16,654 nt of DNA, taken from a virus. Taxonomy: Duplodnaviria; Heunggongvirae; Uroviricota; Caudoviricetes. Shown here one piece after another: positions 774 through 16,654 of the stretch. The notes under the pieces are model-generated. The model saw only the letters and a program-made list of their open reading frames with translations. It made no database searches and had not been told where the DNA came from. The position numbers and the translations under genes were made by a program. The stretch lies in IMG/VR virus record IMGVR_UViG_2609459769_000016; one strand, 5' to 3'. Each line of letters opens with the position of its first letter. Positions within the stretch are counted from its first letter, which is position 1.

Positions 774-1526
774 TCAGATTCCCTGGTGAGTAAGAATTTT
801 ACTTTCTGAACTCCTCTGAGAGTATTGACTTGGAGAAACACCAAAATAACGTCTAAATACATAAGTAAAGTATGAGACACTGGCATAACCACAGACCTTA
901 GCTACTTTACTAATAGGATAACAACGAGTGCTGAGTAAATATTCAGCCATTTGCATCCTCTCATCAAGTATGATCTTACTGAATGATACCCCCTCTTCTT
1001 TCAATTTCATCTTTAGTAAACTTTCGCTGAGATATAATCTTGATGATATATCCTTAAGACGCCATGGTGCAGATAAATCCGTATGAATAATCGTTTTAAC
1101 TTTAGCCCCTGTGCTTTTCAAACATCCAAACAGAAATACTCCAAATTGTTTTTCAGAAGAAAATGCAGAGAGACATGTAAAAGCAATAGACTCATCAAAA
1201 ATTTCTATGTATTCAGCACAGTGATTAGCCCAACTAATTAATCCTTTAATTAAACTGAAGTCAGCAAAGTTTATTTTTAAATAAGATGGATATTCCCTAC
1301 AATCAGAAATATCCCTTAAGTTATTAGCTTTCAAATAGCGACTAATAAACTCAGCGCCAAAATCCGCCACTATCACTCTTTCAGGATATGTCAGGAAAAA
1401 ATCTCTAGAGCTAGAGTCGACAAGTACAGATGAACCTCTCTCCAGAAACACACTCTCTTTTCCGAAATAAACATCAAAGGACTCCAAAATCAATATAACT
1501 GAACATGTAGTTGCCATATCATCCAC
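774..1526 (-). CDS. AraC/XylS-family transcriptional regulator, AppY/EnvY-like
   Basis: 250-aa ORF with a C-terminal AraC-type HTH (…ISKVAKVCGYASVSYFTYVFRRYFGVSPSQY…). The C-terminal half resembles AppY from memory; the N-terminal domain is divergent. It occupies the position appY holds relative to tail-fibre assembly genes in DLP12. Confidence 0.7.
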   Translation of the reverse strand: MDDMATTCSVILILESFDVYFGKESVFLERGSSVLVDSSSRDFFLTYPERVIVADFGAEFISRYLKANNLRDISDCREYPSYLKINFADFSLIKGLISWANHCAEYIEIFDESIAFTCLSAFSSEKQFGVFLFGCLKSTGAKVKTIIHTDLSAPWRLKDISSRLYLSESLLKMKLKEEGVSFSKIILDERMQMAEYLLSTRCYPISKVAKVCGYASVSYFTYVFRRYFGVSPSQYSQRSSESKILTHQGI

Positions 1527-3385: not shown

Positions 3386-3967
3386 TTACCCTATAGGTGC
3401 TACTGGCCATTCAATATCCGGTGCAGTTAATGTATCAACACGGTTCAGCAACACCAGATACTTTTTCCAGGCTTCCAGCAACAAGGTTTCTTCCTCCGTT
3501 GCGATTTCCAGATCTACAGCATCCTGAAGTGGCGCAATATGCTCACTGGCTACCTGCATCAGGCTGTTTTTTGTTTCTTCTGCCTCCCGGATCCGGAACA
3601 GTTTTTCTGCTTCCGTATCCTTCACCCAGGCTGTGCCGTTCCACTTCTGATATTCCCCTCCCGGCGACAACCAGGTAACATTTTCCGGTAACGGACCGAG
3701 TTCAGAAATAAATAACGCGTCGCCGGAAGCCACGTCATAAACCGTTTTACCCCGATGGTCTTCAACGAGATGCCACGATGCCTCATCACTGTTGAAAACA
3801 GCCACGAAGCCTGCCGGAATATCTGGTGGTGCAATATCGGTACTGTTTGCTGGCAGACCTGTATGAGGCGGAATATATGCGTCACCTTCACCAATAAATT
3901 CATTAGTTCCGGCCAGCAGATTATAAATTTTTATGGTCCGTGCTTGTTCACTCATTCTGAATGCCAT
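3386..3967 (-). CDS. tfa: tail fibre assembly protein Tfa, lambda-type
   Basis: 193-aa [57 protein letters not shown]... matches lambda Tfa almost throughout. Its ATG overlaps the stf stop (TAATG). Confidence 0.9.
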
Positions 3968-6900
3968 TATGCAAGCCTCACAATATAGTTAAATGCGATG
4001 TTTTTGACGGTGTTTTCCGCGTTACCCGCAGCGTTAACGGTGATGGTGTGTCCATGTGAGCCAATCGCAACGGAGTGCGTATGAGCACCAATACCGACAG
4101 TATGTGCATGTGCGCCTGCGATTGCAGCAGTGCCGGACAGCGAGTGGGTATGAGCACCATCTGATGATGTCTTCCCTGCATTACGAGTCTGGCCACTACC
4201 GCTTGTTGTGCTCATAATCCCCGCGCTTGGATTTGAAATCGCGGTATAACCATTAGGGAAAATGCTCGTGTTCGTGCCACCAAATGCACCGGAACTCTTG
4301 TGTTGGTGCGCGCCGGCACTATTTGCGGTCCCGCTAATACTATGGGTATGCGCCCCGGTGTTATTCGTGGATTTGGTTCCGTAATCAAACGACGATGTGG
4401 TTTTCGTCCCCAAATCCGTACTGGATGCGCTGGCGCTGTGGGTGTGCGATTTAATGCCGTCCTGTTCCTGAGACAATACGGCGCGACCACTGGCAGGTTT
4501 GCCCTTAATCGTCCAGCCACGCATATCAGGGATCACGCCTGACGGATAAGCGGCTGCAAGTTTCGGGTATGCAGATTTGTCAAAAGTCTGCCCCTGCATC
4601 AGGGCATAACCAGACGGAACGGTATCTGATGGCCACGGGATTGGTGCGCCGACTGGGTAGCTTTCTGGTGGAAGATTTTTCGAGGTATAAACTTCTGCCC
4701 AGTCTTCCTCAAAACCATAGCCATCTCTTGAGGAACGGTAGAACAGACCTCCATTTCTGTAATGTGCCTTCATCTGCAGGGTCCGGCAACTTCCGACTCC
4801 GGTATAGAAGTTAACCAGAATATAGCTGTCGCCAGAGCGGGTGACATTGTAAGCGCCTGATTCGGCATTCCATGGAACGCCCCCATCCGCATCGGCATAT
4901 GTATCCGTTGCCCTTCTGGCAAAAGCAGCCACATGCGCGGCGGTTAAAGTAATATCTTTGGAACCATCAAACTCAACACCAGAAACCAGTCTTGGCGTTT
5001 GCAGCTTTGTTGCTGTTAATGCATTACCATTCAGACTTGCGGACAGTTTGGTTCCAATAATCAGTTCGCCGGTTGCGTTATCAATAGCAAACGGTCTTAA
5101 TGTATTCCAGCCACCATAAACATCACCTTGATTGGTAAGCAGCAGGTAAGTTTTAGCGCCATCATTACGCCATAATGCACCATACTCCCCACCTATCATT
5201 CGAATCTGATTACCACCACGCGCTACAATTTCGTCTGTGGCAAAAAGTTTTTTGCACGACAAGTTATCGTTAACGATTAACGAATGAGACTCATAAAAAC
5301 CACGCCCACTCTTAAAATCAAGGATAACGTCCGCCGCGATACATTCAGTCGCCGGATTTGTTGCCCCAAACTTATAGGTCGTATCATTAACAACGAGATC
5401 AGCACCAGGTGCGGATATTGACAGGCCATCTTCGATAAACGCAAAAACAGGGAAAGCAGCGCCATCAACATAGAACACAGAGCGCAAATCATCGCCCTTA
5501 TTACTCATCATTATTGAGTGGATGGCTCGTTCATTGTTTTGATATTGCCAGAACATTCCATAAGCATAACGCCCCCTGTCAGTCCAGCCACCAGGCATAA
5601 CAAATCCGTTAAACTCGCAGTTATTCATCGGATCGCCTGCGGTTCGCGTTGCCGTGGTGATAATGACCCTTGATGCCAGTTCGCTTACTGAGCCAGCAGA
5701 ACGCATAACAACAACAGGGTAATATTTTCCAGATGTTGCACCTGCAGGAGCGTTAACCCGCACATAACGCATACCACGCTTATCAGCAAAGTCTGTTTTA
5801 CTGACCGCGTTAATGTTGTTCAGGAAGCGTCCCTTATCGGGTATATCAGCGCCGTTCTGGTCTTTCTGCAGACGTTTCTCTGCATTGTCATAGGCTGATT
5901 TTACTGCCTTTGGCGTTGCCGCCAGCGTTTCAGACGTACTGTTGGTCGCACTGCTGAGCTGTACTACCCCCTTTTTCGTCGTGCTCGCATCCTCAAGCGC
6001 CACGGCGGATGCAATATCCTCTGCCCGTTTTGCCGCTGTCTCGGCGCGCGTTGCCGCGGATTCCGCCGTACTTTTGCTCTGTGCTGCCGCTGCCGCACTG
6101 CCAGCTGCCTCTGTCGCCTTCGTGGATGCTGTCGTGGCGCTGCCCTTCGCTGCTGACGCCTGTCTGGTCGCCTCATCTTTTGAAGCAGACGCCGATGATG
6201 CCGATGACGCCGCCGAACTGGCTGACGATGCGGCAGCCGTTTTTGAGGATTCTGCGCTGGTTTCCGACGCTTTCGCGTTCGTTTCGGATGTCTTCGCTGC
6301 GGAAGCAGACCTCGCTGCTGCGCTGGCCTGTTCAGTGGCTTCGCCAGCCTTCGTTGTGGCTGTTGAAGCAGACGATGCGGCACTTTCTGCCGACTTTCCG
6401 GCAGCGGTGGCACTGGCTGAGGCCTGCCCGGCACTTGTTGACGCGGCGCTGGCAGACGACGCAGCCGCTGTTTTTGAGCCTGCCGCAGCTGAGGCACTCT
6501 GTCCCGCTGCCGTTTCAGAAGACTTAGCGTTCGTCTCGGACGTTTTGGCCGCCTTCGCAGAATTTGCTGTCGCCGTTGCCGAGGAAGCTGCGCTGCTGGC
6601 GCTCGAGGCTGCGCTCGTTTCTGATGATTTTGCCGCCTCTTTTGAAGCTGACGCATCCCGGGCTGAGGTGGCAGCTTCTGACGCTTTCGTGGTCGCGGTG
6701 GATGCAGAAGTGGCTGCTGATTGTTGTGACGCTGCCGCATTCGTTTCTGACGTTTTCGCCGCAGCGGCACTGGTGGCCGCCGCGCTTTTTGAGGACTCTG
6801 CAGCGGCAGCACTTTTTTCCGCTTCAGTGGCCTTTGTTGATGCCGTTCCTGCGCTGGAAGACGCTGACTGAGCCGACGACGCGGCCTGTCCGGCTGACGT

Positions 6901-7368
6901 GCTGGCTGCGCGTGCTGAGCCTGCAGCATCAGTCGCATGGGTTGCCGCCTCACGGGCTGATGTGCCGGCATCGCTGGCTGACTTCTTCGCGGCTGCCGTG
7001 TTCTGTGCCACCGCGGACGCGTTACGCGCCACCTCTTCCACCATCAGTTCAAAACGGCGCAGAGCCTCAGGACGGGCATCATCCTCTGTCATGGCACCGA
7101 GAAAATCATTCAGCGTACCGGGTTGAGAATCTTCATACACGGTAATGGTCCCGGCATGTGATGGCGGGAATCCCTCCACCAACAGACTGACGCTGTACTG
7201 ACCATACTCGACGTCCATTGTGTAACGCCCGGCTTCATCCGGGTTTTCTGAGGCCACTGTGTTCACCACCACCGTGGTGCTGTTGCGCCTGGCCTTTAGC
7301 TGAATGGTGCAGTTTTGTATCGGCTTACCTGCGCCATCTTTCAGTACACCTGAAATCCGTACTGCCAT
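3967..7368 (-). CDS. stf: side tail fibre protein Stf (lambda orf401/orf314-type, StfR-like, 1133 aa)
   Basis: N-terminus [49 protein letters not shown]... and C-terminus ...[63 protein letters not shown] match lambda Stf; the central part is a long Ala/Ser/Thr-rich repeat region. SD GGGGGGAA lies upstream of the ATG at 7366-7368. Confidence 0.9.
6020..7030 (-). repeat. Ala/Ser/Thr-rich low-complexity tandem-repeat coding tract inside stf
   Basis: Protein residues about 113-450 consist of reiterated units such as [11 protein letters not shown].. and [10 protein letters not shown]. The GCN-rich periodic DNA leaves long stop-free frames on both strands (track ORFs 5942-6871 +, 5964-6971 -, 6009-6527 +, 6564-7145 +). 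Confidence 0.7.
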
Positions 7369-7377
7369 ATTCCCCCC

Positions 7378-7406
7378 ACAAAAAAGCCCGCCTGAACCGG
7401 CGGGCT
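7378..7406 (-). terminator. Rho-independent terminator downstream of ybcW, directly upstream of the stf ribosome-binding site
   Basis: 8-bp perfect stem AGCCCGCC (7385-7392) and GGCGGGCT (7399-7406) with loop TGAACC. On the minus strand it is followed by UUUUUGU and then the stf SD and ATG. Confidence 0.5.
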
Positions 7407-7429
7407 GTCATAACACTGTGTTATGGTGA

Positions 7430-7636
7430 TCAGTCAACCACCAGGGAATAATCCTTCATATTATTATCGTGCTTCACCAACGCTGCCTCAATTGCTCTGA
7501 ATGCTTCCAGAGACACCTTATGTTCTATACATGCAATTACAACATCAGGGTAACTCATAGAAATGGTGCTATTAAGCATATTTTTTACACGAATCAGATC
7601 CACGGAGGGATCATCAGCAGATTGTTCTTTATTCAT
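7430..7636 (-). CDS. ybcW: YbcW-like small prophage protein (68 aa), function unknown
   Basis: Translation [68 protein letters not shown] matches DLP12 YbcW as recalled. Position and orientation fit the DLP12 gene order. Confidence 0.75.
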
Positions 7637-8622: not shown

Positions 8623-8916
8623 ATGAAAAAAATGCTACTCGCTACTGCGCTGGCCCTGCTTATTACAGGATGTGCTCAACAGACGTTTACTGTTCAAAAC
8701 AAACCGGCAGCAGTAGCACCAAAGGAAACCATCACCCATCATTTCTTCGTTTCTGGAATTGGGCAGAAGAAAACTGTCGATGCAGCCAAAATTTGTGGCG
8801 GCGCAGAAAATGTTGTTAAAACAGAAACCCAGCAAACATTCGTAAATGGATTGCTCGGTTTTATTACTTTAGGCATTTATACTCCGCTGGAAGCGCGTGT
8901 GTATTGCTCACAATAA
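8623..8916 (+). CDS. bor: Bor lipoprotein (serum-resistance lipoprotein family)
   Basis: 97-aa ORF MKKMLLATALALLITGCAQQTFTVQNKPAAV... with lipoprotein signal and lipobox LITGC. It is convergent with the lysis genes, as bor is in lambda and DLP12. Confidence 0.9.
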   Translation: MKKMLLATALALLITGCAQQTFTVQNKPAAVAPKETITHHFFVSGIGQKKTVDAAKICGGAENVVKTETQQTFVNGLLGFITLGIYTPLEARVYCSQ

Positions 8917-9409: not shown

Positions 9410-9903
9410 TGCTGACCCCACAAACAGATTTCACGCTCAATCTCACGACGAGTCATGAGACCTTTCCATTGCTTACCGCCAGCATATGTCCAGCGACGTA
9501 GCTGATCACATGCGCCTTTGATATCGCCCTGGTTTATTTTGCGAAGAAGCGTCGATGTTCTGAAATTGCCAGCACCCACGTTGTAAACGAATGAGTAAAG
9601 AGCGCCGCGCGTTGTTTCCGGTATATCGACTTTGATGTACGGGTTAATTTGTCTGGCGACAGTGGCAAGGTCTTTATTCAAGAGTGCTTTGCATTCTGCT
9701 TTGGTATACGTTTTACCGAGCATGATGTCTTTTCCGGTGTGTCCGTGACATACAGTCCATACGCCAACGATATCTTTGTATGGTACGTAGCTGACACCTT
9801 CCAGACCATCGTTACCACTTGGGCCAGTAATTAACACTGATGCTATAGCAATTGCTCCGCCACCAATAGCAGCAGCAACGGCTTTTCGTAATGATGGAGG
9901 CAT
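9406..9903 (-). CDS. rrrD: SAR endolysin (phage-21 R-type lysozyme)
   Basis: 165-aa ORF with a Gly/Ala-rich N-terminal signal-anchor-release segment ([23 protein letters not shown]) followed by a lysozyme domain. It matches DLP12 RrrD as recalled. Confidence 0.9.
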
Positions 9904-10118
9904 TATTCACCTCTCGCAGCCTTGCGCTTATCTTCTTTAATCTTGAAATAAAGGTTTGTCAGGTACGTCAGCAGGCCAAATACCAGGCTACCCAGCACAC
10001 CTATTGCTGCCCACTGTGAGGGCGTGACTTTATCGAGCAGCTGTAAAAACCAGTAACCGGCACTACCTGCTGAGGTGCCATAGGCGACACCCGTTGTTAA
10101 CTTATCCATGGATTTCAT
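9903..10118 (-). CDS. essD: class II pinholin (phage-21 S-type), dual-start motif
   Basis: 71-aa [74 protein letters not shown] with two TM segments, Met1 and Met4, and SD GAGGTGGGG upstream. The track's longer 86-aa version starts at an upstream ATG with no support. Confidence 0.85.
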
Positions 10119-10239
10119 AACCCCACCTCGCAGACAAAGCGGGTGTAAATTGAGGGAATACAACGTATCGCAAAAAAGCAGAAACGTAACAGACTCGGAG
10201 TCAGTGAATAACTCAGGTATTGGGTTATCAGCTAATATC

Positions 10240-10279
10240 GAGACTCAAAAAATGGAAAAACCCGCTCGACGGCGGGTTT
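10240..10279 (-). terminator. Intrinsic terminator on the minus strand upstream of essD; candidate tR'-like terminator of the late leader
   Basis: 8-bp stem AAACCCGC (10258-10265) and GCGGGTTT (10272-10279) with a 6-nt loop. On the minus strand it is followed by UUUUUCCAUUUUUUG (window 10243-10257). Confidence 0.4.
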
Positions 10280-10705
10280 AAGCTGTGTGACGAAGTAACC
10301 ACTCTTAACAGCATAACCAATTTTTTACGTACGTAAACCACTAAATGATATTTGCGAGAATGCTACCGAGTATTGAAAACACCACTACAAATACATAAGC
10401 AAATCTCAACAAATAACCAACAAATAATTTCCAGCGTTATTTTTAGCTGGTTTAAATTGAATCTTCAAATTATAGAGCACTTATAAATAACAGCCATTAA
10501 TATAAATTGGCTAATAGATTTATTTTTATTCAGCCAAGAGCCATGAATAGGATTCGATAGAAAAAGTTCAGATAAAAATAGAGATCTACTTCACAAATCA
10601 AATGAGAAACCAAAACTTACATCTTGAAATAATCACATTGATTAGATGAATATTTATCGCGCAGTGACATCATTTTTTAATAATAGTTCAAAAAAAGGGC
10701 TCACG

Positions 10706-11788
10706 ATGAAAAAATTAACAGTGGCAATTTCTGCTGTAGCTGCATCAGTACTGATGGCGATGTCTGCTCAGGCAGCTGAAATTTATAATAAAGACAGTAA
10801 CAAGCTGGATCTGTACGGGAAAGTTAATGCTAAGCACTACTTCTCCTCTAATGATGCAGATGATGGTGATACTACTTATGCCCGTCTTGGCTTCAAAGGT
10901 GAAACCCAAATCAACGATCAACTGACTGGTTTCGGTCAGTGGGAATATGAATTCAAAGGCAACCGCGCTGAATCTCAAGGTTCCTCCAAAGATAAAACCC
11001 GTCTTGCCTTCGCTGGCCTGAAATTCGGTGACTACGGCTCCATCGATTATGGCCGTAACTACGGTGTAGCATACGATATTGGTGCATGGACCGACGTTCT
11101 GCCAGAATTCGGTGGCGATACCTGGACCCAAACAGATGTATTCATGACTGGTCGCACCACAGGTGTTGCAACTTATCGTAACAATGACTTCTTTGGTCTG
11201 GTTGATGGTCTGAACTTTGCTGCTCAGTATCAGGGTAAAAATGACCGCACTGACGTAACTGAAGCTAATGGTGATGGTTTCGGTTTCTCCACTACTTATG
11301 AGTATGAAGGATTCGGTGTAGGTGCAACCTATGCTAAATCTGACCGCACTAATAATCAGGTTATCTACGGTAACAACAGCCTGAATGCATCTGGTCAAAA
11401 TGCTGAAGTATGGGCAGCTGGTCTGAAATATGATGCGAACAACATCTATCTGGCTACCACCTATTCTGAAACCCAGAACATGACTGTTTTTGGTAATAAC
11501 CATATTGCCAACAAAGCACAAAACTTCGAAGTAGTTGCACAATATCAGTTCGACTTCGGTCTGCGTCCGTCCGTTGCTTACCTGCAATCTAAAGGAAAAG
11601 ACTTGGGTGCGTGGGGTGATCAGGACCTGGTTGAATATATTGATGTAGGTGCAACCTATTACTTCAACAAAAATATGTCCACTTTTGTTGATTACAAAAT
11701 CAACCTGATTGATAAGAGCGATTTCACGAAAGCATCTGGCGTTGCTACCGATGATATCGTTGCTGTAGGTATGGTTTACCAGTTCTAA
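10706..11788 (+). CDS. nmpC: outer-membrane general porin, NmpC/OmpC family, apparently intact
   Basis: [42 protein letters not shown]...VGMVYQF with signal peptide, porin beta-barrel repeats and terminal aromatic residue. It sits between quuD and essD as nmpC does in DLP12; the ATG at 10706 has an AAGGG SD. Confidence 0.9.
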
Positions 11789-11924
11789 TTTGATTACTAA
11801 AAGATATGTTGCGGGAGGCTTTGCCTCCCCAACATATAAGTGGCTCCCTCAAGCCACTTCCTTTAGGAGCACAACCTTGCTTCTAACTATATAAACCTTC
11901 TGTTATATATTACCCTTTATTTTT

Positions 11925-11959
11925 GGGGGCGTCTCAACGCCCCATTTTTAATAATTTTT
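11925..11959 (+). terminator. Rho-independent terminator downstream of nmpC
   Basis: Stem GGGGCG (11926-11931) and CGCCCC (11938-11943) with loop TCTCAA, followed by ATTTTTAATAATTTTT. Confidence 0.5.
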
Positions 11960-11976
11960 AGTAAACAATTGGCATA

Positions 11977-12360
11977 TTAATTAGAGTTATTAACAACGAT
12001 ATCCATCTCTAACCGGATATCTAATGCCATTAACATCCCTTCAATTATACCCTCAGCCTTCTGTAACCTTTTCCCGATATAACCATCAGAGCAGCAATGC
12101 TTACCTGCCAGTGACATGAATGTCATACCGACTACATAATAATCTACTAATAAATCGTGCAAATCGCTGTTGTTCTTTTTCAGACGGGCCATGCACCCGC
12201 AAATGATCATCGCGTCATCGTCACAACATTGCGGGCGAGATTTTACTTTTGAAGTAATTAATCCCTTAAAACCGGCGGCAATGGACGACCAGGTCACATC
12301 TTCATGATTATTAGCCGCCCACGCTCCCCAACGCTCAAGAACCATCTGAATATCACGCAT
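11977..12360 (-). CDS. quuD: late-gene antiterminator Q homologue
   Basis: 127-aa [63 protein letters not shown]... matches DLP12 QuuD as recalled. The track starts 5 codons upstream. Confidence 0.85.
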
Positions 12361-12445
12361 CAACTTACTCCACAAAAATCAGACCAGAACGCCAATTACA
12401 AGCAAAAATCAATAAAACAGTATTAGTTGATTGTTATCTCTGACT

Positions 12446-12586
12446 TCATACTCCTGCTCCTGTCAGGGTTTTGGCGTAATTCCTCAGTATTCGGTAATCG
12501 GTCAAAACAGAACTGGGGAAACGATATAAGCGCAGGCGCATCCAGCGGTGGCGAAGAAGTTCTGCCATATTAAACTCAAACATCAT
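12446..12586 (-). CDS. ylcG: YlcG-like small protein (46 aa)
   Basis: Hand-translated minus-strand [49 protein letters not shown]. Its ATG overlaps the rusA stop (ATGA), and the position between rusA and quuD matches ylcG in DLP12. It is below the ORF-track size cutoff. Confidence 0.5.
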
Positions 12587-13969: not shown

Positions 13970-14188
13970 ATGTACTTGACACTTCAGGAGTGGAACGCAC
14001 GCCAGCGACGCCCAAGAAGCCTTGAAACAGTTCGTCGATGGGTACGCGAGTGCAGGATATTCCCTCCTCCGGTTAAGGATGGAAGAGAGTATCTGTTCCA
14101 CGAATCAGCGGTAAAGGTTGACTTAAATCGACCAGTAACAGGTAGCCTTTTGAAGAGGATCAGAAATGGGAAGAAGGCGAAGTCATGA
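13970..14188 (+). CDS. xis: excisionase Xis (lambda)
   Basis: 72-aa ORF MYLTLQEWNARQRRPRSLETVRRWVRECRIFPPPVKDGREYLFHESAVKVDLNRPVTGSLLKRIRNGKKAKS matches lambda Xis as recalled. It overlaps the int start by 23 nt. Confidence 0.95.
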   Translation: MYLTLQEWNARQRRPRSLETVRRWVRECRIFPPPVKDGREYLFHESAVKVDLNRPVTGSLLKRIRNGKKAKS

Positions 14189-15236
14189 GCGCCGGGATTT
14201 ACCCCCTAACCTTTATATAAGAAACAATGGATATTACTGCTACAGGGACCCAAGGACGGGTAAAGAGTTTGGATTAGGCAGAGACAGGCGAATCGCAATC
14301 ACTGAAGCCATACAGGCCAACATTGAGTTATTTTCAGGACACAAACACAAGCCTCTGACAGCGAGAATCAACAGTGATAATTCCGTTACGTTACATTCAT
14401 GGCTTGATCGCTACGAAAAAATCCTGGCCAGCAGAGGAATCAAGCAGAAGACACTCATAAATTACATGAGCAAAATTAAAGCAATAAGGAGGGGGCTGCC
14501 TGATGCTCCACTTGAAGACATCACCACAAAAGAAATTGCGGCAATGCTCAATGGATACATAGACGAGGGCAAGGCGGCGTCAGCCAAGTTAATCAGATCA
14601 ACACTGAGCGATGCATTCCGAGAGGCAATAGCTGAAGGCCATATAACAACAAACCCTGTCGCTGCCACTCGCGCAGCAAAATCAGAGGTAAGGAGATCAA
14701 GACTTACGGCTGACGAATACCTGAAAATTTATCAAGCAGCAGAATCATCACCATGTTGGCTCAGACTTGCAATGGAACTGGCTGTTGTTACCGGGCAACG
14801 AGTTGGTGATTTATGCGAAATGAAGTGGTCTGATATCGTAGATGGATATCTTTATGTCGAGCAAAGCAAAACAGGCGTAAAAATTGCCATCCCAACAACA
14901 TTGCATGTTGATGCTCTCGGGATATCAATGAAGGAAACACTTGATAAATGCAAAGAGATTCTTGGCGGAGAAACCATAATTGCATCTACTCGTCGTGAAC
15001 CGCTTTCATCCGGCACAGTATCAAGGTATTTTATGCGCGCACGAAAAGCATCAGGTCTTTCCTTCGAAGGGGATCCGCCTACCTTTCACGAGTTGCGCAG
15101 TTTGTCTGCAAGACTCTATGAGAAGCAGATAAGCGATAAGTTTGCTCAACATCTTCTCGGGCATAAGTCGGACACCATGGCATCACAGTATCGTGATGAC
15201 AGAGGCAGGGAGTGGGACAAAATTGAAATCAAATAA
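14166..15236 (+). CDS. int: site-specific tyrosine integrase Int (lambda)
   Basis: 356-aa ORF MGRRRSHERRDLPPNLYIRNNGYYCYRDPRTGKEFGLGRDRRIAITEAIQ...HLLGHKSDTMASQYRDDRGREWDKIEIK matches lambda Int as recalled, including the catalytic region and terminal Tyr motif. Confidence 0.95.
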   Translation: MGRRRSHERRDLPPNLYIRNNGYYCYRDPRTGKEFGLGRDRRIAITEAIQANIELFSGHKHKPLTARINSDNSVTLHSWLDRYEKILASRGIKQKTLINYMSKIKAIRRGLPDAPLEDITTKEIAAMLNGYIDEGKAASAKLIRSTLSDAFREAIAEGHITTNPVAATRAAKSEVRRSRLTADEYLKIYQAAESSPCWLRLAMELAVVTGQRVGDLCEMKWSDIVDGYLYVEQSKTGVKIAIPTTLHVDALGISMKETLDKCKEILGGETIIASTRREPLSSGTVSRYFMRARKASGLSFEGDPPTFHELRSLSARLYEKQISDKFAQHLLGHKSDTMASQYRDDRGREWDKIEIK

Positions 15237-15330
15237 TGATTTTATTTTGACTGATAGTGACCTGTTCGTTGCAACAAATTGATAAGCAATGCTTTTTTAT
15301 AATGCCAACTTAGTATAAAAAAGCAGGCTT
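15231..15330. other. attL (hybrid attachment site: lambda P' arm, 15-bp common core, bacterial arm)
   Basis: Core TTAGTATAAAAAAGC at 15310-15324 is the reverse complement of GCTTTTTTATACTAA, followed by AGGC (bacterial side). Phage-side AAATAATGATTTTATTTTGACTGATAGTGACCTG at 15231-15264 is the reverse complement of the lambda P' arm with Int arm-type sites, overlapping the int stop. Confidence 0.85.
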
Positions 15331-15370
15331 CAACGGATTCATTTTTCTATTTCATAGCCCGGAGCAACCT

Positions 15371-16654
15371 GTGAACACATTTTCAGTTTCCCGTCTGGCG
15401 CTGGCATTGGCTTTTGGCGTGACGCTGACCGCCTGTAGCTCAACCCCGCCCGATCAACGTCCTTCTGATCAAACCGCGCCTGGTACCTCTTCTCGCCCGA
15501 TTCTGTCGGCAAAAGAAGCGCAGAATTTCGATGCTCAACACTATTTTGCATCCCTGACACCAGGTGCTGCAGCGTGGAATCCTTCCCCGATTACCCTGCC
15601 TGCGCAACCTGACTTTGTTGTCGGCCCGGCGGGCACTCAAGGTGTAACGCATACCACGATTCAGGCGGCGGTAGATGCGGCAATTATCAAGCGTACCAAC
15701 AAGCGCCAGTATATTGCCGTGATGCCTGGTGAGTATCAGGGAACGGTATATGTCCCTGCCGCTCCGGGTGGAATTACTCTGTACGGTACAGGTGAAAAAC
15801 CGATTGATGTGAAGATTGGGCTTTCCCTTGATGGTGGCATGAGCCCTGCCGACTGGCGTCACGACGTCAACCCGCGCGGCAAATATATGCCAGGTAAACC
15901 AGCGTGGTATATGTACGATAGCTGCCAGAGCAAACGCAGCGACAGTATCGGTGTTCTCTGCTCTGCGGTCTTCTGGTCACAAAACAATGGCCTGCAACTG
16001 CAAAATCTGACCATCGAAAACACGCTGGGCGATAGCGTAGATGCAGGTAACCATCCGGCGGTGGCACTGCGTACTGATGGTGACCAGGTACAGATTAACA
16101 ACGTTAACATTCTCGGTCGTCAGAACACCTTCTTTGTCACCAACAGCGGTGTGCAGAACCGTCTGGAAACAAATCGTCAGCCGCGTACGCTGGTGACCAA
16201 CAGCTACATTGAAGGGGATGTGGATATCGTTTCTGGTCGCGGCGCAGTGGTGTTCGATAACACCGAATTCCGCGTGGTGAACTCACGTACTCAGCAAGAA
16301 GCGTATGTGTTTGCACCGGCTACGCTGTCCAACATTTACTACGGTTTCCTCGCCGTAAACAGCCGTTTCAATGCTTTCGGTGATGGTGTGGCGCAACTGG
16401 GCCGCTCGCTGGATGTTGATGCCAATACCAACGGTCAGGTGGTGATCCGTGATAGCGCCATCAACGAAGGTTTTAACACGGCTAAACCGTGGGCCGATGC
16501 GGTGATCTCTAATCGTCCGTTTGCGGGTAATACCGGCAGCGTAGATGATAACGACGAAATACAGCGCAATCTGAATGACACTAACTACAACCGCATGTGG
16601 GAATACAATAACCGCGGCGTGGGTAGTAAAGTGGTTGCAGAGGCGAAGAAGTAA
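15371..16654 (+). CDS. ybhC: YbhC outer-membrane lipoprotein (pectinesterase-fold acyl-CoA thioesterase family), host gene flanking att-lambda
   Basis: 427-aa ORF from a GTG start with SD GGAG; lipoprotein signal MNTFSVSRLALALAFGVTLTAC. ybhC is the chromosomal gene on the gal side of attB-lambda. The stop is at the window end. Confidence 0.9.
   Translation: MNTFSVSRLALALAFGVTLTACSSTPPDQRPSDQTAPGTSSRPILSAKEAQNFDAQHYFASLTPGAAAWNPSPITLPAQPDFVVGPAGTQGVTHTTIQAAVDAAIIKRTNKRQYIAVMPGEYQGTVYVPAAPGGITLYGTGEKPIDVKIGLSLDGGMSPADWRHDVNPRGKYMPGKPAWYMYDSCQSKRSDSIGVLCSAVFWSQNNGLQLQNLTIENTLGDSVDAGNHPAVALRTDGDQVQINNVNILGRQNTFFVTNSGVQNRLETNRQPRTLVTNSYIEGDVDIVSGRGAVVFDNTEFRVVNSRTQQEAYVFAPATLSNIYYGFLAVNSRFNAFGDGVAQLGRSLDVDANTNGQVVIRDSAINEGFNTAKPWADAVISNRPFAGNTGSVDDNDEIQRNLNDTNYNRMWEYNNRGVGSKVVAEAKK

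Follow-up and report, generated by a model that had tools for sequence, protein, structure and literature searches.

We propose that the segment between the late antiterminator gene quuD (Q) and the holin gene essD in the DNA analysed here (a stretch of 16,654 nucleotides, below called the window) is a self-contained cargo module, or 'moron', in which a porin gene of the nmpC/lc type, its regulated promoter, the regulatory RNA IpeX and a terminator lie in reverse orientation between Q and the late promoter PR', and we put the probability of this reading at about 85%. The segment has its own terminator, possesses the promoter PnmpC by homology, sits between two phage genes, and the related phage VT1-Sakai is without such an insert. 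According to the alignments, PR' and its terminator tR' have been kept and not displaced; the porin is inserted downstream of the 3' end of Q and upstream of PR'. The parts of the locus and the evidence for each are as follows.

3386-3967, minus strand: Tfa assembly protein (Pfam Caudo_TAP; 94% to lambda Tfa).
3967-7368, minus strand: lambda-type side tail fibre Stf, 1133 aa (Pfam phage_tail_N, Gp34_trimer, Collar; RefSeq order).
9903-10118, minus strand: essD, phage 21-type holin (P21 holin S family), first gene of the late lysis operon (Pfam Phage_holin_2_1; RefSeq).
10309-10247, minus strand: short late leader with a tR'-like terminator (terminator scan, VT1-Sakai alignment, folding).
10279-10258, with a T-run to 10247, minus strand: tR' hairpin, matching the VT1-Sakai 'terminator for pR' transcript'; fold confirmed.
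10337-10310, minus strand: putative late promoter PR', divergent from the porin, aligned with the VT1-Sakai 'putative late promoter'.
10337-10332 and 10315-10310, minus strand: putative -35 (TTTACG) and -10 (TATGCT) of PR', with a 16-nt spacer (alignment).
10338-10705, plus strand: AT-rich porin regulatory region holding PnmpC (alignment to K-12 and PA-2; GC profile).
10578-10598: CRP site within the porin regulatory region (PA-2 annotation, J02580, mapped through the alignment).
10283-10303: second CRP site, inside the PR' leader (same annotation and mapping).
10706-11788, plus strand: intact nmpC/lc-type porin, 360 aa (translation, Pfam, NCBIfam, identity to NmpC/Lc).
10706-10774, plus strand: porin signal peptide, 23 aa (match to the annotated Lc signal peptide).
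11789-11956, plus strand: porin 3' UTR, the IpeX regulatory RNA, 168 nt (~98% identity to K-12 and PA-2; ends in the porin terminator).
11926-11943, with a T-run to ~11955, plus strand: porin intrinsic terminator (terminator scan).
11977-12360, minus strand: quuD, Q-type late antiterminator, convergent with the porin (Pfam Phage_antitermQ, E 4e-53; RefSeq quuD).

In a lysogen, the host would transcribe such a module independently of the phage late operon, and a trimeric general-diffusion porin would be exported by means of its signal peptide. Through its IpeX tail, the porin transcript would lower the synthesis of host OmpC and OmpF, and the cell surface would be partly re-equipped with the phage porin, with OmpC reduced. 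Late transcription from PR', which lies beyond the module, would head away from it, and no collision would be expected.

The porin gene itself is complete. Its listed open reading frame, 10646-11788 (+), is longer because of an upstream in-frame ATG; RefSeq and PA-2 start the gene at the ATG at 10706, which gives 360 residues. Pfam Porin_1 matches residues 29-360 on model positions 1-337 of 337 (E 3e-153). After the 23-residue signal peptide the mature protein begins with AEIYNK, where solved mature OmpC chains begin too; its alignment with the solved OmpC, OmpK36 and PhoE chains extends from their residue 1 to the terminal phenylalanine, and the end of the protein, VYQF, is the usual one with a C-terminal aromatic residue. 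The earlier note had described a full-length porin that has a signal peptide and a terminator of its own and is read against the direction of quuD and essD, and had set it against a K-12 nmpC disrupted by IS5; these observations agree with ours, the signal peptide being identical to that of Lc, the intrinsic terminator lying on the plus strand at 11926-11955, both neighbouring genes on the minus strand, and the K-12 copy being split by IS5B. A single-sequence structure prediction of the porin reached a pLDDT of 29.7 and gave no usable model.

Of the NCBIfam models, the protein exceeds the cut-off for the OmpC subfamily only and stays below the PhoE and OmpF equivalog cut-offs; its RefSeq entry, WP_000737275.1, is named 'porin OmpC'. 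It is 90.1% identical in amino acids to PA-2 Lc and likewise 90.1% to K-12 NmpC with IS5 removed (between these two proteins the identity is 98.9%), closer to both than to OmpC, OmpF or PhoE, and it does not differ at all from the porin of phage PhiR34_1 (100%). Judged by these identities, the porin is of the phage-carried nmpC/lc type, in a 360-aa allele which is not that of K-12 or PA-2, and the predicted product is a functional outer-membrane porin of the general-diffusion trimeric type. It counts against our reading that function was shown for the K-12/PA-2 allele and the window has the 360-aa one. Two further open reading frames, one antisense inside the porin (10745-11587, minus strand) and a small one at 10108-10281 (plus strand), matched no family and were not counted as genes.

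The window is ~100% identical over its 16.6 kb to complete E. coli chromosomes, for instance that of strain JKHS016, whose RefSeq annotation, with Pfam used as a check, provided the gene order. The prophage site lies between ybhB and ybhC, beside the bio genes. From right to left there follow a lambda-type integrase, an excisionase, a few fragments, rusA, ylcG, quuD, the porin, essD, rrrD, rzpD, bor, ybcV and ybcW, and directly past ybcW the side tail fibre gene, its assembly gene, an AraC-family regulator and insertion-sequence debris. The annotation of the matching genome places no head, tail-shaft, immunity or replication genes in the element, and no tRNA genes were found within the window. 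The element is what remains of a lambdoid prophage, strongly decayed and located at the lambda attachment site, in which Stf and Tfa were stranded beside ybcW through deletion of the head and tail genes. Because its carrier is a decayed prophage, the porin module now behaves as a host gene.

The regulatory region in front of the porin has a GC content of 27-30%, against ~47-50% in the lysis genes, and over 10119-10720 its alignment with K-12 and PA-2 gives a mean column identity of 97%. PnmpC is placed here by homology to the K-12 region, as a probable location within it and not as a fixed -10/-35 or start. In K-12, PnmpC was mapped by 5' RACE, with a detectable transcript; deletion of 199 bp upstream of the nmpC start codon abolishes its effect; it drives expression of the IS5 transposase, is activated by CRP at two sites, is repressed by OmpR, IHF and MprA, and is targeted by RyhB (PMC11677980). 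By analogy with the publications on K-12 DLP12 and PA-2, the porin of the window would probably be expressed and regulated in the same manner.

The porin 3' UTR, 11789-11956, differs at only four positions from the sequence 3' of K-12 nmpC and PA-2 lc (~98% identity), folds as a series of stem-loops (-62.9 kcal/mol, z = -9.2), and is found in 80 of 80 IMG/VR loci that carry this allele (the best 80 of 461 relatives) at 93-100% identity. According to three papers, IpeX is a 167-nt RNA that originates from the phage porin promoter within the porin transcript and represses OmpC and OmpF (PMC12197685, PMC3617542, PMC5069750); its published position is after the stop codon of nmpC/lc and ahead of the rho-independent terminator, and the region in the window likewise extends from the stop codon to the terminator at 11926-11955. 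By position and sequence this 3' UTR is the published IpeX, and OmpC/OmpF repression may be expected of it from the work on K-12 DLP12 and PA-2. An Rfam scan of 9800-12500 at a permissive threshold gave a single match, a chance-level Trp_leader on the tR' hairpin (E 0.52); Rfam holds no IpeX family, so no independent model to score the RNA of the window, and the RefSeq records of the matching genome and of K-12 leave IpeX unannotated.

The layout of late transcription was clarified by comparison with VT1-Sakai, an H-19B-type Stx1 phage whose Q is 78% identical to QuuD. DNA homology runs through Q to ~12027-12028, is interrupted there, and continues at 10338-10256 (minus strand) with a block annotated in VT1-Sakai as the late promoter, the Q-utilisation site (qut) and the rho-independent terminator of the PR' transcript. 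Upstream of PR', where VT1-Sakai has 88 bp, the window has a 1.69-kb insert. The PR'/tR' block precedes essD by ~130 nt, and each of the 76 untruncated related IMG/VR loci (from the best 80 of 461) contains it. Among 11 porin-carrying sequences it is the best-conserved stretch of the locus, with a DNA diversity of zero over 10269-10318 and 0.047 over 10319-10368. A simple promoter scan had left PR' unlisted, as TTTACG/TATGCT has 8 of 12 positions and the threshold was 9. For K-12 DLP12, a lysis-operon promoter directly upstream of essD, controlled by a Q-like protein and RpoE, and QuuD-dependent read-through of a terminator are published, as reported in PMC7918800 (citing Rueggeberg 2013, 2015); in the window, promoter activity of the PR' block and its response to QuuD are predicted by this analogy. 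The porin and the late operon are divergent, with ~370 bp of 27-30% GC DNA between them, and late transcripts would never cross the porin, because Q-modified polymerase starting from PR' runs away from it.

These data bear directly on the claim of the earlier note that the porin occupies the usual place of the late promoter and leader, so that porin expression and Q-dependent late transcription could interfere. The first part has to be given up, PR' (10337-10310) and tR' (10279-10247) being retained upstream of essD, and a model in which the two transcriptions converge and interfere we consider very unlikely. It is true that the porin is flanked by quuD and essD, both on the strand opposite to its own, and that the quuD message is convergent with it. 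This message alone converges on the porin, and, as no T-run follows the porin terminator when it is read in reverse, read-through of the message could be antisense to IpeX and the porin. However, the block homologous to PR', qut and tR' of VT1-Sakai lies past the porin in the late direction and points away from it, its conservation is the highest of the locus, the DLP12 literature has the lysis promoter just upstream of essD as well, and the remnant is without an immunity or early region to drive strong quuD transcription. Plaque-forming phages share the layout, which is therefore compatible with late gene expression. The porin may also be intact and yet effectively silent, a quiescent gene held off by nucleoid proteins on its AT-rich promoter and with no present role, which we regard as unlikely. 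Intactness does not guarantee expression, E. coli B is a strain in which nmpC is described as quiescent, a regulatory region of 27-30% GC is typical of silenced horizontally acquired DNA, and the carrier prophage is decaying. The published action of OmpR, IHF and MprA as repressors of PnmpC (PMC11677980) points the same way, but the near-identical promoter of K-12 gave the 5' RACE transcript and IS5 transposase expression described in the same paper. The reading frame, promoter and IpeX are, moreover, kept in thousands of genomes, and this wide conservation, together with a dN/dS of 0.05-0.13 across the variable half of the porin, argues for continuing purifying selection on it.

OmpC is the receptor of PA-2 and, more generally, a receptor for many phages and lambda-type side fibres. 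The original description of IpeX is that of Castillo-Keller, Vuong and Misra (2006, J Bacteriol 188:576), and its abstract reportedly states that PA-2 lysogens make Lc and lose OmpC. The earlier note had linked the porin to a lambda-type Stf in the same element, with OmpC as the known receptor of such fibres. The fibre gene is indeed there (3967-7368, minus strand), recognised by Pfam and by identity to lambda, its N-terminus being 79% identical to lambda orf-401 and its C-terminus 69% to orf-314; that Ur-lambda Stf binds OmpC is published (PMC12617516). IpeX repression, binding of Stf to OmpC and the PA-2 observations therefore offer a known mechanism, porin replacement, for a link of the porin to OmpC, and to this extent the suggestion stood. 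It did not extend to the fibre of this element. The idea that porin and Stf are a co-adapted pair, the allele being matched to its own fibre for resistance or recognition, would draw on the related Stf tips that many porin-carrying lambdoid phages also have, on the OmpC binding of Ur-lambda Stf, and on porin alleles that vary only at indel-prone sites, the presumed surface loops; we nevertheless find it extremely unlikely. The last 299 residues of Stf are 99.3% identical in ev099 and mEp332, whose porins belong to different classes (98% and 90% identical to that of the window), and PhiR34_1, with a porin identical to ours, has an Stf tip that is just 84% identical. Among the phages with both values no co-variation of porin allele and Stf tip was seen, and from these comparisons porin allele and fibre tip assort independently. 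Stf cannot be built onto a virion here, because the element has no head and tail-shaft genes, and, as its tip is only 69% identical to that of lambda, OmpC specificity is not assured.

Returning to the porin module as cargo, its variation is unevenly distributed. The 11 porin sequences fall into three classes: one of 365 aa (K-12, PA-2, Kati, mEp332, Chlobot), the 360-aa class of the window (PhiR34_1 identical, ev099 98%), and a second 360-aa class (ev207, 2G7b, PhiR49_1). Residues 1-180 are almost invariant, with two differences from PA-2 Lc, and nearly all differences fall in five patches, at about residues 181-187, 218-232, 268-272, 306-315 and 340-352. Four of these (181-187, 218-232, 306-315 and 340-352) lie at or beside indel sites of solved OmpC-family porins, as taken relative to the window porin from the OmpC, OmpK36 and OmpK37 chains; by established porin topology we take such indel-prone sites to be surface loops, and these four patches would then lie in or next to loops. 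In the DNA, the PR'/tR' block, the proximal porin promoter, the first ~90 codons and the 3' UTR are nearly invariant among the 11 sequences, and over the 3' 60% of the porin coding region they differ pairwise by 0.10-0.25 on average. In this variable half, synonymous divergence is 0.8-2.1, at the dN/dS given above; no positive selection on the variable patches can be claimed, synonymous sites there being saturated (dS undefined or >1). The pattern suggests old lineages of alleles, or else the exchange of an interior, with purifying selection acting.

Other genes, too, occupy the stretch that separates Q from PR': with the same Q type, PhiR40_1 has in it one unrelated reverse-oriented ORF and SfII two, so that this gap seems to take up cargo repeatedly. 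We may even suggest, tentatively and with more doubt than conviction, two readings: in lambdoid phages with this Q type the gap may be a recurrent slot for reverse cargo, insulated from late transcription, and the porin with IpeX may act as a 'receptor swap' cassette. The near-invariant promoter, first ~90 codons and IpeX around an interior in at least three old allele classes are the pattern behind the second suggestion; if it is true, loop-encoding interiors would be exchanged by recombination under pressure from phages, colicins or antibody. Our data concern the pattern of porin variation and not its selective cause, and 'receptor swap' is one explanation that would fit it.

The module is widespread. 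Among 5426 complete E. coli genomes, 4223 contain its 1797-bp porin segment, at least 80% covered in one place in 2465 of them; the segment is also present in 43 phage records at ~91-100% identity, including isolated temperate phages and the PA-2 lc record J02580 (91.4% over the whole segment). In IMG/VR, 461 stretches encode a relative of the porin; the best 80 of them have 99-100% protein identity, and quuD flanks the porin in all 80. The Q-porin-S layout was found in nine phage records, isolated and plaque-forming phages included. With one genome taken per species, the porin together with QuuD or IpeX was found only in E. coli and E. albertii.

The intact module is thus a common and long-described lysogenic-conversion module that was already known, and an intact nmpC/ompD has been published for the non-K-12 strain EAEC 042 (PMC2808357). 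As a discovery it matters little, phage-borne nmpC/lc being known since the 1980s and IpeX since 2006. The value of the analysis is in a corrected map of the locus, on which the late promoter is kept and divergent and the 3' UTR is a known regulator of OmpC and OmpF. PGAP labels the gene 'porin OmpC' and IpeX stays unmarked, which can mislead studies of porin loss, antibiotic permeability and phage receptors in clinical E. coli.

Among the known systems, the lc gene of PA-2 (J02580; Blasband, Marcotte and Schnaitman 1986, J Biol Chem 261:12723, as cited in PMC11677980) has the same position and orientation, with the lysis genes on one side and the porin reversed, and the same signal peptide; identity is 97% in the regulatory region, where CRP sites are annotated, and ~98% in the 3' UTR. 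It differs in its length of 365 aa against 360 in the window, at the identity of 90.1%, with the differences in the five patches past residue 180, and PA-2 is a viable phage whereas the carrier in the window is a defective remnant. The nmpC of K-12 DLP12 (qsr') has the same neighbours, rusA, ylcG, quuD, nmpC, essD, rrrD, rzpD, bor, ybcV and ybcW, and its promoter and IpeX are 97% and ~98% identical to those of the window. It is, however, split by IS5B near the 3' end, and the porin of the window is intact and of another allele class; DLP12 lies elsewhere on the chromosome, while the element of the window is between ybhB and ybhC with a lambda-type integrase, and 16 bp that precede essD in both the window and PA-2 are missing from K-12.

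The IpeX of the window has 168 nt, against the 167 nt published (Castillo-Keller, Vuong and Misra 2006), in the same position and at ~98% identity; with four nucleotide differences from the RNA of K-12 and PA-2, its activity here would follow by analogy to the literature. The nearest non-phage relatives of the porin are chromosomal OmpD-type porins of Citrobacter, Enterobacter and Salmonella arizonae, 76-79% identical over the full length; unlike the porin of the window, they are on large chromosomal contigs, with no QuuD, EssD or IpeX homology within their 2.5-kb flanks.

The Stx phages H-19B/VT1-Sakai share with the window a 78% identical Q, and their late promoter block aligns with that of the window in the -35, the length of the spacer, the -10, the leader and the hairpin of the terminator. 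The PR' of VT1-Sakai overlaps with the end of Q, and the stx1 cargo follows downstream of PR', co-directional with it and Q-dependent; in contrast, the cargo of the window lies upstream of the putative PR', reversed, and would be Q-independent.

Among its allele classes, the porin gene (10706-11788) diverges in a mosaic manner: hardly any differences are seen in the untranslated flanks on either side or in the opening ~90 codons, and in the interior synonymous sites are saturated, with dS of 0.8-2.1. This mosaic divergence suggests that recombination breakpoints lie within the porin gene itself. The gap between Q and the putative late promoter PR', where the porin resides, is also occupied in two phages with the same Q type, PhiR40_1 (L007:1990-2436) and SfII (L008:329-1943), by reverse-oriented ORFs which are unrelated and have no assigned function, and these differing ORFs suggest that the gap is a recurrent cargo slot. 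Further genes discussed here are the following, in window coordinates.

8623-8916 (+), bor, serum-resistance lipoprotein gene, a second reverse-oriented cargo gene just beyond the lysis genes
774-1526 (-), intact AraC-family regulator gene, with YdeO and GadX as top matches, both below the cut-off
within 14166-16654, lambda-type integrase with an arm-binding domain, encoded by the DLP12-like element of the window

The record of the phage PA-2 lc porin (GenBank J02580) annotates two CRP sites, one of which maps inside the PR' leader at 10283-10303. The porin start codon is about 400 bp downstream of this site, and we may suggest that the site, if real, could target the late promoter instead of the porin.

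A complete IS5 of 1195 bp (1767-2961), with 99.6% identity to the IS5B that interrupts nmpC in K-12, is carried by the same remnant as the porin but at another site, flanked by the AraC-type regulator gene and tfa. It is absent from the corresponding position in the chromosome of E. coli JKHS016, the closest genome. The JKHS016 counterpart of the AraC-family gene is truncated by IS1, whereas the window copy is intact.

As to the decay of the prophage, in the stretch 7369-7636 the start of stf is separated from ybcW (7430-7636) by 62 bp, and therefore a deletion took out every gene for the head and the tail shaft. What is left of the early region has shrunk too, to a truncated ybcO fragment placed directly against an ea22-like one.

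This remnant also differs from the cryptic prophage DLP12 of K-12. A stretch of 16 bp of the essD leader (GTATCGCAAAAAAGCA, 10165-10180), present both in the window and in PA-2, is missing from K-12 DLP12. The DLP12-like gene set (14166-16654 in the window, and also L003) is inserted next to the bio genes, with ybhB on one side and ybhC on the other, and this site differs from the one used by DLP12 in K-12.
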